Source: Escherichia phage YUEEL01. Taken from it: a stretch of 64,000 bases of DNA. Numbering within the stretch: position 1 is the stretch's first letter; each line of letters starts with the position of its first letter. Shown here one piece after another: positions 4,439 through 25,764 of the stretch. The position numbers and the translations under genes are program-made. Below the pieces are notes generated by a model. That model was not told the DNA's origin, did no database searches, and saw nothing but the letters and a program-made list of their open reading frames with translations. The stretch lies in the sequence record NC_054935.2; one strand, 5' to 3'.

Positions 4439-5641
4439 ATGAAAGTATGTATTTTTATGGCTCGAGGTCTTGAAGGTTGTGGTGTAACTAAATTTTCTCT
4501 TGAGCAGCGTGATTGGTTTATTAAAAATGGTCATGAAGTAACTTTGGTTTATGCTAAAGATAAATCATTTACTCGTAACTGTGCACATGATTATAAATCA
4601 TTTTCAATTCCGGTTTTATTGGCAAAAGAATACGATAAAACGCTTAAGCTGGTAAATGATTGTGATATTCTAATTATCAATTCAGTTCCTGCTACTTCAG
4701 TCGAAGAAGACACAATTAATAACTATAAAAAAATTATTGATAACATTAAACCTTCGGTTCGTGTTGTAGTTTATCAGCATGACCATTCTTCTCTTTCTTT
4801 ACGCCGAAATTTGGGATTAGAAGAAACTGTTCGTCGAGCTGATGTTATTTTTAGCCATTCTGATAATGGTGATTTTAATAAAGTTCTGATGAAAGAATGG
4901 TATCCAGAAACTGTTTCTCTGTTTGATGATATTGAAGAAGCACCGACAGTATATAACTTTCAGCCTCCTATGGATATTGCGAAGGTTCGGTCAACCTACT
5001 GGAAAGATGTTTCTGAAATTAACATGAATATCAACCGTTGGATTGGTCGTACGACTACATGGAAAGGTTTTTATCAGATGTTTGATTTTCATGAAAAACA
5101 TCTTAAACCTGCAGGACTAAGTACTATTATGGAAGGTCTGGAACGTTCTCCAGCGTTCATTCCTATTAAAGAAAAAGGAATTCCATACGAGTATTATCGT
5201 CTTCATCAAGTAGACCAAATTAAAATTGCTCCTAATTTGCCAACGCAAATTCTTGACCGTTATGTAAATAGCGAAATGCTTGAACGCATGAGTAAATCCG
5301 GATTTGGTTATCAGTTGAGTAAGTTGGATAAAAAATATCTGCAACGTTCTTTAGAATATACTCATCTCGAGCTTGGTGCATGTGGAACAATTCCGGTATT
5401 TTGGAAATCTACTGGCGAAAATTTAAAATTCCGTGTTGATAATACTCCTTTGACCTCGCATGATAGCGGTATCATTTGGTTTGATGAAAATGATATGGAA
5501 TCAACGTTTGAACGTATTAAAGAACTGTCATCTGACCGAGCTCTTTATGACCGTGAGCGAGAAAAAGCATATGAATTTTTGTATCAGCATCAAGATTCAA
5601 GCTTCTGCTTTAAAGAACAGTTTGACATTATTACAAAATAA
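4439..5641 (+). CDS. agt: alpha-glucosyltransferase (glucosylates hydroxymethylcytosine DNA)
   Basis: 400-aa translation MKVCIFMARGLEGCGVTKFSLEQRDWFIKNGHEVTLVYAKDKSF... near-identical to T4 alpha-gt from memory. Confidence 0.92.
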   Translation: MKVCIFMARGLEGCGVTKFSLEQRDWFIKNGHEVTLVYAKDKSFTRNCAHDYKSFSIPVLLAKEYDKTLKLVNDCDILIINSVPATSVEEDTINNYKKIIDNIKPSVRVVVYQHDHSSLSLRRNLGLEETVRRADVIFSHSDNGDFNKVLMKEWYPETVSLFDDIEEAPTVYNFQPPMDIAKVRSTYWKDVSEINMNINRWIGRTTTWKGFYQMFDFHEKHLKPAGLSTIMEGLERSPAFIPIKEKGIPYEYYRLHQVDQIKIAPNLPTQILDRYVNSEMLERMSKSGFGYQLSKLDKKYLQRSLEYTHLELGACGTIPVFWKSTGENLKFRVDNTPLTSHDSGIIWFDENDMESTFERIKELSSDRALYDREREKAYEFLYQHQDSSFCFKEQFDIITK

Positions 5642-16515: not shown

Positions 16516-17256
16516 ATGATTAATGACTCTATGACAGTTGAAGAAATCCGTCTTCATTTGGGGCTTGCATTAAAAGAAAAAGATTTCGTAGTTGATAAAA
16601 CTGGCGTTAAAACTATTGAAATTATTGGCGCATCATTTGTAGCAGATGAACCGTTTATTTTTGGCGCTCTTAATGATGAATACATTCAGCGTGAACTTGA
16701 ATGGTATAAATCTAAGAGCTTGTTCGTTAAAGATATTCCGGGTGAAACACCGAAGATTTGGCAGCAGGTAGCATCTTCTAAAGGTGAAATTAACTCGAAT
16801 TATGGCTGGGCTATCTGGTCAGAAGATAACTATGCCCAGTATGATATGTGTTTAGCTGAACTTGGTCAAAATCCTGATTCTCGACGTGGTATCATGATTT
16901 ATACTCGTCCATCCATGCAATTTGACTACAATAAAGATGGTATGTCAGATTTCATGTGTACTAATACAGTACAGTACCTGATTCGTGATAAGAAAGTCAA
17001 TGCAGTAGTAAGCATGCGCTCAAATGACGTGGTCTTCGGATTCCGTAATGATTATGCATGGCAAAAATACGTATTAGATAAATTAGTATCTGATTTGAAT
17101 GCAGGCGATTCAACTCGTCAGTATAAAGCAGGTTCTATTATATGGAATGTTGGAAGTCTTCATGTATATTCTCGTCATTTTTACTTGGTTGATCATTGGT
17201 GGAATACTGGCGAAACTCATATTGTGAAAAAAGATTATAACGGTGAGTGGAAATGA
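16516..17256 (+). CDS. 42: gp42 dCMP hydroxymethylase
   Basis: 246 aa with thymidylate-synthase-like core (FMCTNTVQYLIRDKKVNAVVSMRSNDVVFGF); matches T4 gp42. Confidence 0.92.
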   Translation: MINDSMTVEEIRLHLGLALKEKDFVVDKTGVKTIEIIGASFVADEPFIFGALNDEYIQRELEWYKSKSLFVKDIPGETPKIWQQVASSKGEINSNYGWAIWSEDNYAQYDMCLAELGQNPDSRRGIMIYTRPSMQFDYNKDGMSDFMCTNTVQYLIRDKKVNAVVSMRSNDVVFGFRNDYAWQKYVLDKLVSDLNAGDSTRQYKAGSIIWNVGSLHVYSRHFYLVDHWWNTGETHIVKKDYNGEWK

Positions 17257-18095
17257 TTCAATTCGTAATTCCAAGCTATCAACGTGTAGGGGCAGTTTCT
17301 GCCCTTGATATGTTTCCGACTGATTATGAACCTCATATTGTAGTGCGTGAACACGAAGAAAAAGCTTATTATGATGCCTATGGGTCTAGAGCTAAAATTA
17401 TAACTATTCCTGATGATGTAAACGGAATTGCCGGTACTCGTAAAGCAATTACTGATATGTATGCAGGTCAACGAATCTGGATGATTGACGATGATACTAC
17501 TATCCGTATGAGTTCAATACGAAAGAGAGACGATAAACGGCGCGTAGATAAAATTAATCAATTAACTCGTGAACAGTTCTATGAATTGATTCAATATGTT
17601 GAGGATGCCATGGATTGCGGATATTATCATGGCCATGCTCGTCTACCAATTTTTAAAATTACTTCATCTTGGGGTAATTATCGTGAAAATTCATATGGAT
17701 TCACGAATACATGGTATGACCTCGGAAAACTTACGACAGAACAAATTGGGTATGGAAAAATTGATTTATGCGAAGATATGTATGCATTTCTCAATTTAAT
17801 TAATCAAGGTTATCCGCATTTGGCCTTGTTCAAATATCTAGTTGTATCTGGAAAAGCACAAGCTCCTGGCGGGTGTAGTTCAATTCGTAGTAATTCTAAA
17901 CATAATAGAGCGCTTGAGCAAATCAATAGAGAGTTTCCAGAGCAAGCTCGTTGGAAAACTTCTAATATTGAAAAACGAAAATCGTTGGGTGAAGAAGACG
18001 AGCCATTAAAGGTTCTTCGCATGTGCGTTTCGCGTAAAGAAAAATCAGAAGCATTTCATAAGTTTAATGCTATTCATCCAATAGCAGTTGATTAA
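17253..18095 (+). CDS. putative GT-A-fold glycosyltransferase occupying the T4 beta-glucosyltransferase slot
   Basis: N-terminal FVIPSYQR (GT2-like first strand) and WMIDDD (DxD motif); no similarity to T4 beta-gt as I remember it; ATG at 17253 overlaps the gene 42 stop, track start is an upstream GTG. Confidence 0.55.
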   Translation: MIQFVIPSYQRVGAVSALDMFPTDYEPHIVVREHEEKAYYDAYGSRAKIITIPDDVNGIAGTRKAITDMYAGQRIWMIDDDTTIRMSSIRKRDDKRRVDKINQLTREQFYELIQYVEDAMDCGYYHGHARLPIFKITSSWGNYRENSYGFTNTWYDLGKLTTEQIGYGKIDLCEDMYAFLNLINQGYPHLALFKYLVVSGKAQAPGGCSSIRSNSKHNRALEQINREFPEQARWKTSNIEKRKSLGEEDEPLKVLRMCVSRKEKSEAFHKFNAIHPIAVD

Positions 18096-18119
18096 TGCCT
18101 AAATTTATTGTGTTATAAT
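18094..18119 (+). promoter_or_regulatory. possible MotA-type middle promoter for uvsX
   Basis: aatgcctaa (partial MotA box) about 11 bp upstream of tgttataat. Confidence 0.3.
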
Positions 18120-18172: not shown

Positions 18173-19354
18173 ATGTCTATTGCAGATTTAAAATCCCGTT
18201 TGATTAAAGCTTCCACTTCTAAAATGACTGCTGAACTGACTACATCTAAATTCTTTAATGAAAAGGATGTAATTCGTACAAAAATTCCAATGCTTAATAT
18301 TGCTATTTCTGGTGCGATTGATGGCGGTATGCAGTCTGGTTTAACTATTTTCGCAGGGCCTTCTAAACACTTTAAATCAAATATGTCTTTGACTATGGTT
18401 GCAGCGTATTTGAACAAATATCCTGATGCAGTTTGTCTATTCTATGATAGCGAATTTGGTATTACTCCAGCTTATTTGCGATCCATGGGAGTTGACCCGG
18501 AACGTGTAATTCATACGCCAATTCAATCAGTTGAACAGCTGAAAATTGATATGGTGAATCAGCTTGAAGCTATTGAGCGTGGTGAAAAGGTTATAGTATT
18601 CATCGACTCAATTGGTAATATGGCTTCTAAGAAAGAAACGGAAGATGCCTTGAATGAAAAATCTGTGGCAGATATGACTCGTGCTAAATCACTGAAGTCA
18701 TTATTCCGTATTGTTACTCCTTATTTTAGTATTAAAAACATTCCATGTGTTGCGGTTAACCATACAATTGAAACAATTGAAATGTTTAGTAAAACCGTGA
18801 TGACAGGTGGTACAGGCGTAATGTATTCGGCTGATACTGTATTCATTATCGGTAAGCGCCAGATTAAAGATGGTTCTGATCTTCAGGGATATCAATTTGT
18901 TCTAAATGTAGAAAAATCTCGTACCGTTAAAGAAAAAAGTAAATTCTTTATTGATGTTAAATTTGACGGTGGTATCGATCCTTATTCTGGATTGTTAGAT
19001 ATGGCTCTAGAATTAGGATTTGTAGTAAAACCTAAAAATGGCTGGTATGCTCGTGAATTTCTTGATGAAGAAACCGGCGAGATGATTCGCGAAGAAAAAT
19101 CTTGGCGTGCAAAAGATACCAATTGCACTACATTCTGGGGTCCTTTATTTAAGCATCAACCATTCCGAGATGCTATTAAACGTGCTTATCAGTTAGGTGC
19201 TATTGATAGTAATGAAATTGTTGAAGCTGAAGTTGATGAATTGATTAACTCAAAGGTTGAAAAATTTAAATCTCCAGAAAGTAAAAGTAAATCAGCAGCT
19301 GATTTAGAAACTGACCTAGATCAGTTAAGTGATATGGAAGAATTTAATGAATAA
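18173..19354 (+). CDS. uvsX: UvsX recombinase (RecA/Rad51 family)
   Basis: 393 aa MSIADLKSRLIKASTSKMTAELTTSKFFNEKDVIRTKIPMLNIAISG...; T4 UvsX with a 2-residue difference near the N-terminus. Confidence 0.93.
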   Translation: MSIADLKSRLIKASTSKMTAELTTSKFFNEKDVIRTKIPMLNIAISGAIDGGMQSGLTIFAGPSKHFKSNMSLTMVAAYLNKYPDAVCLFYDSEFGITPAYLRSMGVDPERVIHTPIQSVEQLKIDMVNQLEAIERGEKVIVFIDSIGNMASKKETEDALNEKSVADMTRAKSLKSLFRIVTPYFSIKNIPCVAVNHTIETIEMFSKTVMTGGTGVMYSADTVFIIGKRQIKDGSDLQGYQFVLNVEKSRTVKEKSKFFIDVKFDGGIDPYSGLLDMALELGFVVKPKNGWYAREFLDEETGEMIREEKSWRAKDTNCTTFWGPLFKHQPFRDAIKRAYQLGAIDSNEIVEAEVDELINSKVEKFKSPESKSKSAADLETDLDQLSDMEEFNE

Positions 19355-23845: not shown

Positions 23846-25185
<1,340 letters not shown>

Positions 25186-25245
25186 TTGCTTACATACTCA
25201 AATGATATAATTATTTAACTTATTAATGAATTGAAAGGAAAAATA

Positions 25246-25764
25246 ATGGCTTACTTTAACGAATGTAGTCAACTGATCGAAGGCGCTGATAAAGCTCAAA
25301 ATGAATATTGGGATATTCTCGGTGATGAAAAAGACCCGCTGCAGGTTATGCTTGATATGCAGAAATCTCTACAGGTTCGTTTAGCTAAAGATAAACCTGA
25401 ATATAACCGTCATCCTGATGATTTGGCTACTGCGGGTGAAGTTGTTGATTGGCTGCGTAATCAGAAAGATTATATTGATGATGAATTCCGCGAACTATTG
25501 ACTTCTCTTGGTGGTATGAGCAATGGTGAAAAAGATGCATCTGCTGTATGGAAGCCTTGGAAAGCTCAACATGGTGAACGACGTGAAACTCTGATTACTG
25601 ATTTGTCTCCACAAGACCAGTTGGAAATTAAATTCGAAATGATTGATATTCTTCATTTCGTTCTGAACATGTTCCAAGGTCTCGGTCTTACGGCTGAAGA
25701 AATCTTTAAACTTTATTATCTGAAAAATGCTGAAAATTTCGCTCGTCAAGACCGAGGTTATTAA
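25246..25764 (+). CDS. 56: gp56 dCTPase/dUTPase (MazG-like)
   Basis: MAYFNECSQLIEGADKAQNEYWDILGDEKDPLQVMLDMQK... matches T4 gp56; ATG at 25246 after GAAAGGAAAAATA. Confidence 0.88.
   Translation: MAYFNECSQLIEGADKAQNEYWDILGDEKDPLQVMLDMQKSLQVRLAKDKPEYNRHPDDLATAGEVVDWLRNQKDYIDDEFRELLTSLGGMSNGEKDASAVWKPWKAQHGERRETLITDLSPQDQLEIKFEMIDILHFVLNMFQGLGLTAEEIFKLYYLKNAENFARQDRGY

Follow-up and report, generated by a model that had tools for sequence, protein, structure and literature searches.

Our analysis indicates that the 280-aa ORF lying between gene 42 and uvsX in the window, which is the whole 64,000-nt stretch of DNA analysed here, is very probably the beta-glucosyl-HMC-alpha-glucosyltransferase (ba-gt) of T2/T6-type Tequatroviruses, an enzyme that would add the second glucose to give gentiobiosyl-hmC. 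The sequence-only reading of this DNA had placed a GT-A-type glycosyltransferase in the slot that T4 gives to its beta-glucosyltransferase (b-gt), and had proposed that hmC is alpha-glucosylated and then modified further, either by a second glucose as in T2 and T6 or by a different sugar such as the arabinose of RB69. The identity of 97–98 % to the T2 and T6 enzymes is consistent with the first of these sugars and our comparisons did not favour the second. The window gene is that of a long-known T2/T6-type enzyme, and the literature already covers its identity, its fold, its synteny and its product; the finding is correct but ordinary, because T4-like coliphages usually carry ba-gt in this slot. 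The original paper on the ba-gt sequence is reportedly that of Winkler and Rueger in NAR in 1993.

The ORF is uninterrupted (843 nt including the stop codon), and the two motifs that had been picked out in the sequence-only reading were located at residues 4–11 (FVIPSYQR) and 76–81 (WMIDDD). The ORF listing gives a GTG start at 17247; every relative is annotated from the ATG at 17253, which overlaps, as ATGA, the gene 42 stop. The order of gene 42, ba-gt and uvsX is common to the window, T2, T6 and T4_ev151, and in T4 the same interval is filled by b-gt and the homing endonuclease gene segA. As had been claimed, the window also encodes both partner enzymes, namely a dCMP hydroxymethylase (gp42), which is ~100 % identical to that of T2, 99 % to T6 and 96 % to T4, and an alpha-glucosyltransferase (alpha-gt), which is identical to that of phage Solly at 400/400 residues, to that of T2 at 398/400 and to those of T4 and T6 at ~92 %. 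All that the sequence-only reading had given as fact was thus borne out, and its interpretation is supported. Gene 56 of the hmC pathway matched Pfam dUTPase_2 (28.9 bits, cut-off 22.9) and is syntenic with the annotated dCTP pyrophosphatase in T6 and EL.

Table 1. Coordinates of the ba-gt gene, its conserved residues and the associated genes in the window
Feature	Coordinates	Strand	Basis
ba-gt / ggt / TAGT (beta-glucosyl-HMC-alpha-glucosyltransferase, very probable) CDS	17253..18095	+	98 % T2, 97 % T6 ba-gt; PHROG 842; PF20691
Gene 42, dCMP hydroxymethylase, maker of hm-dCMP	16516..17256	+	Pfam Thymidylat_synt; T2/T6/T4 gp42 identity
Alpha-glucosyltransferase (a-gt), maker of the alpha-glucosyl-hmC acceptor	4439..5641	+	Pfam AGT E=1.8e-237
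uvsX, downstream edge of the slot	18173..19354	+	Synteny with annotated T4, T2, T6
Gene 56 dCTPase, hmC pathway; start codon uncertain, 519 bp in relatives' annotation	25231..25764	+	
Arg11 codon (CGT)	17283..17285	+	Family-invariant in 63-sequence alignment
Asp79-Asp80-Asp81 codons, DxD motif	17487..17495	+	63-sequence alignment, AF2 model
Glu174-Asp175 codons, 'ED' opening helix 174–184	17772..17777	+	D175 invariant; helix from AF2 model

An extended -10-like element (TGTTATAAT, 18111–18119, + strand) was observed in the 77 nt that separate ba-gt from uvsX; it is identical in T2 and Solly and is presumably the uvsX promoter. This element is absent from the output of the sigma-70 scan because it has no -35 match, and the scan itself returned 15 sites around ba-gt against 14.3 in shuffled sequence, which is no excess. 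Within codons 12–18 of ba-gt lies a G+C-rich, extendable hairpin (GGGGCAG-TTT-CTGCCC; 17287–17307, + strand), a terminator-like match whose sequence is likewise identical in T2 and Solly. The RNA fold of 17235–17325 around this hairpin was estimated at -25.8 kcal/mol (z=-2.65); attenuation and mRNA stabilization are possible roles for the hairpin.

Alignment with the T2 and T6 enzymes, which the sequence-only reading had suggested as a check, gave 274/280 and 272/280 identical residues, respectively; these two proteins are UniProt Q06717 and Q06718 (PMC6024577), and a protein of phage T4_ev151 was found to be 100 % identical to the window enzyme. The match to PHROG 842, a family named beta-glucosyl-HMC-alpha-glucosyltransferase, covered profile positions 4–269 of 270 (E=1.5e-88), and that to Pfam PF20691 (TAGT) covered positions 2–205 of 205, scoring 40.7 bits against a gathering cut-off of 27.5, while a search of NCBIfam matched no model. 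Among protein cluster representatives, 344 relatives were found at E<=0.001. Furthermore, a megablast search of 50,697 GenBank phage records, using a criterion of >=90 % nucleotide identity over >=80 % of the length, found the ORF in 472 records, most of which are Escherichia, Shigella, Yersinia or Salmonella Tequatroviruses and many of which annotate it as 'beta-glucosyl-HMC-alpha-glucosyltransferase'. It is not a chance ORF, because it has been kept in these 472 records, and a reading of it as a pseudogene was also rejected. The T4-type b-gt was present in 29 phage records, essentially T4 and its nearest relatives, and therefore the GT-A enzyme is the normal occupant of the slot and T4 the exception, as the literature agrees. 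This corrects a T4-centred view of the interval between gene 42 and uvsX, in which the GT-A enzyme is common and b-gt is rare.

Errors of annotation and possible errors of sequence were observed in records of this locus. The b-gt genes of RB55 (KM607002) and RB59 (KM607003), which are 100 % identical to T4 b-gt, are named 'beta-glucosyl-HMC-alpha-glucosyl-transferase', and in the T2 record AP018813 the label 'N-acetylmuramoyl-L-alanine amidase' stands on alpha-gt, and ba-gt is called hypothetical. For T6, record MH550421 has a TAG at codon 10 of ba-gt (CAG in AP018814; 7951–7953 of the locus, - strand) and annotates the gene from Met20, and record AP018814 is missing one Asp of the DDD triplet through an in-frame loss of 3 nt in a GAT repeat (2738–2743 of the locus, - strand). 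Mutation of the stocks or faulty sequencing may account for these lesions.

The AF2 model of the window protein comprises a single alpha/beta/alpha nucleotide-sugar-binding domain of the GT-A fold that matched solved GT-A structures, and the T6 protein has been modelled with AlphaFold3 as a GT-A enzyme in a sister group of GT2 (PMC13216743). A search of solved structures by sequence gave no match and no structure of a family member. In an alignment of 63 family sequences, R11, D80, D175, G186 and G207 were invariant and I6, P7, R63, D79, D81, G206, R212 and P229 were >=90 % conserved, all of which are intact in the window. No similarity to T4 b-gt was detected (BLASTP E=4.1), and PF09198 was matched by T4 b-gt alone. 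These observations confirm the assignment of the enzyme to GT-A. In the model, a hydrophobic strand (beta4, residues 74–78, RIWMI) directly precedes D79-D80-D81, and this DxD motif should, by analogy, bind metal-UDP. The enzyme would be of the inverting type, because UDP-alpha-glucose gives a beta-1,6 bond; if it resembles inverting GT2 enzymes in mechanism, Asp175 would probably serve as the catalytic base, and a dependence upon divalent metal would likewise be expected.

Identity, fold and gene context are observations upon the window itself, and the reaction proposed for its enzyme is drawn from the literature on the orthologues. [quoted passage not shown] Deletion of ba-gt from T6 left alpha-glucosyl-hmC only (PMC11078745; bioRxiv 10.64898/2026.02.25.707755). 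Ten environmental Tequatroviruses of the same gene arrangement, in which the position of the TAGT gene was stated to be syntenic with T4 beta-GT, were reported in 2026, from HPLC/MS, to carry alpha-5-gentiobiosyl-methyl-dC, with the beta-glucosyl form not detected (PMC13390438), and the ba-gt of 8/10 of these phages differs from the window enzyme by 3–6 residues. If the window enzyme acts in this way, its DNA should therefore hold hmC, some alpha-glucosyl-hmC, a large share of gentiobiosyl-hmC (~40–70 %) and no beta-glucosyl-hmC, and the presence of ba-gt would make this chemistry predictable for a phage. Such chemistry bears on sensitivity to Brig1, a defence directed at alpha-glucosyl-hmC that gentiobiose weakens, and to restriction of the GmrSD/BrxU and McrBC types (PMC11078745, PMC13390438).

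The position of ba-gt in the b-gt slot could also suggest that it stands in for T4 b-gt and glucosylates the bare hmC left by alpha-gt, and TAGT homologues do occur with alpha-GT or beta-GT, some of them alone (PMC13216743). We consider this very improbable. Phages with ba-gt leave ~25–33 % of their hmC unmodified and contain no beta-glucosyl-hmC (PMC13390438), and T6 without ba-gt retains ~75 % alpha-glucosyl-hmC (PMC11078745; bioRxiv 10.64898/2026.02.25.707755), so it is the second sugar alone that is lost. The two enzymes are, moreover, unrelated in sequence and fold. Functional replacement of b-gt was rejected on the unmodified hmC and the absence of beta-glucosyl-hmC.

Transfer of another sugar, e.g. 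arabinose as in RB69-type phages, appears more improbable still, to the point of being practically negligible. GT-A enzymes can in general switch donor with few substitutions, and solitary, distant TAGT homologues occur in other phages (PMC13216743). However, RB69 ORF003c (gp3) showed no similarity to ba-gt (BLASTP E=1.2, hhalign probability 0.17 %), and it and the other RB69/DLP3 arabinosyltransferases are GT-B-like and have 5-hydroxycytosine as their acceptor (PMC6024577; PMC13326640; PMC13390438). RB69 places its arabinose on 5-hydroxycytosine, by means of a different thymidylate-synthase-type enzyme and a sugar-nucleotide (NDP-arabinose) cluster (PMC13390438), whereas the gp42 of the window is 96–100 % identical to the true hydroxymethylases of T4 and T2, and the syntenic annotated region of T4_ev151 contains no sugar-nucleotide genes. 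Phages whose enzymes are 98–99 % identical to that of the window carry the glucose disaccharide only (PMC13390438). An RB69-type arabinosyltransferase was rejected on these grounds, i.e. no homology, a GT-B-like enzyme, another base pathway and a gp42 that is a true hydroxymethylase.

How far the second glucosylation of the window phage proceeds was considered from allelic variation among related phages. Ratios of hmC, alpha-glucosyl-hmC and gentiobiosyl-hmC of ~1:2:2, i.e. ~40 % gentiobiosyl-hmC, have been reported for EL, BGP and Geo, and approximately one-third hmC and two-thirds (~67 %) gentiobiosyl-hmC for Solly, TB37, EH2, CP, Some, NR1 and QOTSP (PMC13390438). Our comparison of alleles covered eight of these Durham phages, leaving out NR1 and QOTSP, and resolved two allele types that differ at seven residues (50, 89, 95, 97, 101, 202 and 203). 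The window enzyme is a mosaic of the two, having I89, K95, R97 and I101 of the EL type and I50, A202 and Q203 of the Solly type, and is thus 4 residues from the Solly-type and 3 from the EL-type enzyme. The share of gentiobiosyl-hmC in the window phage is therefore predictable only as 'substantial'. It is conceivable, though in our view unlikely, that the same enzyme is present here as a weak (T2-like) or partial allele, which would leave the DNA mostly mono-alpha-glucosylated with little gentiobiose. T2 carries ba-gt and yet has ~5 % gentiobiosyl-hmC (PMC6024577; PMC11078745), residues 89–101 of the window are as in EL, BGP and Geo, and the 186-aa gene beside its dam matches the EL counterpart at 100 % identity. 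Conversely, Arg11 and Pro251, the sole residues that separate the T2 enzyme from those of the high-gentiobiosyl phages, are both present in the window, the EL-group residues V50, S202 and H203 are absent from it, and its alpha-gt is that of the high-gentiobiosyl Solly.

The 186-aa ORF (23846–24406, + strand) lies directly upstream of a Dam-type methyltransferase (24406–25185, + strand), is without a Pfam match, and contains a possible PD-(D/E)xK-like FDIV...EIK stretch, as judged by eye. Its counterpart in EL is termed 'restriction enzyme-like', and a gene so named has been reported in EL, BGP and Geo only (PMC13390438). The ORF and the methyltransferase could be a phage-borne nuclease/methylase pair.

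The comparison with T2 revealed an allelic difference that may bear upon the contrast between T2 and T6-type phages, in which gentiobiosyl-hmC amounts to ~70 % (72 % in T6), a difference first observed 65 years ago. The ba-gt of T2 differs from those of Solly, TB37 and EH2 by R11H and P251S only, its alpha-gt differs from that of Solly by E327D and A368T, and T2, Solly and the window do not differ in the translation-initiation region of ba-gt. His11 is present in both independently sequenced T2 genomes, AP018813 (8092–8094 of the locus) and MH751506. With 40-mer queries placed so that any 28-base seed word includes the variant base, megablast of GenBank phages found the His11 (CAT) context only in seven T2 records and in SV76, whose record is as long as that of T2, and the Arg11 (CGT) context in at least 107 records; pattern scans of IMG/VR found 0 and 3 contigs, respectively, numbers too small to be informative. 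As alpha-glucosyl-hmC is normal and gentiobiose low in T2, a hypomorphic R11H enzyme would offer a simple explanation of the difference between T2 and T6. We tentatively propose, at somewhat less than an even chance, that small allelic differences in ba-gt set the ratio of mono- to di-glucosylation, and that R11H, possibly together with P251S, accounts for the contrast. If this holds, the window allele, which keeps Arg11 and recombines 'full' and 'partial' types, would be an informative natural chimera. A full-text literature search for T2 R11H in connection with gentiobiosyl or hydroxymethylcytosine found no paper, and this substitution is possibly the sole point of novelty in our study.

In comparison with the named systems, the window enzyme is closest to the ba-gt of T2 and T6, which it resembles in length (280 aa), sequence (97–98 %), slot between gene 42 and uvsX, partners (alpha-gt and gp42) and conserved residues, with the exception that T2 lacks the invariant Arg11 that the window retains. 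Six substitutions separate it from T2 (R11H, I89M, K95R, R97C, I101V and P251S, the window residue being given first) and eight differences from the T6 protein of AP018814. The TAGT enzymes of the Durham Collection (Solly, TB37, EH2, CP and Some; EL, BGP and Geo) share 98–99 % identity and the same synteny with the window.

The TET-associated glycosyltransferases (TAGT, PF20691) are named for members that lie beside TET/JBP-type oxygenases. The R, DDD, D and GG that are invariant in this family are all found in the window enzyme, which, unlike those members, would act after a thymidylate-synthase-type hydroxymethylase and an alpha-glucosyltransferase. It occupies the chromosomal slot of T4 b-gt (GT-B, PF09198) and, like that enzyme, would use UDP-glucose as donor and leave a beta-linked sugar on the hmC DNA of the phage; however, the T4 enzyme is of unrelated sequence and fold and its acceptor is bare hmC rather than alpha-glucosyl-hmC. 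Inverting GT-A enzymes of the GT2 type (TarS, 5tze; GlfT2, 4fix; SpsA, 1h7l; cellulose synthase, 4p00) are 8–16 % identical to ba-gt, which is set apart from them by its acceptor, a sugar on duplex DNA.
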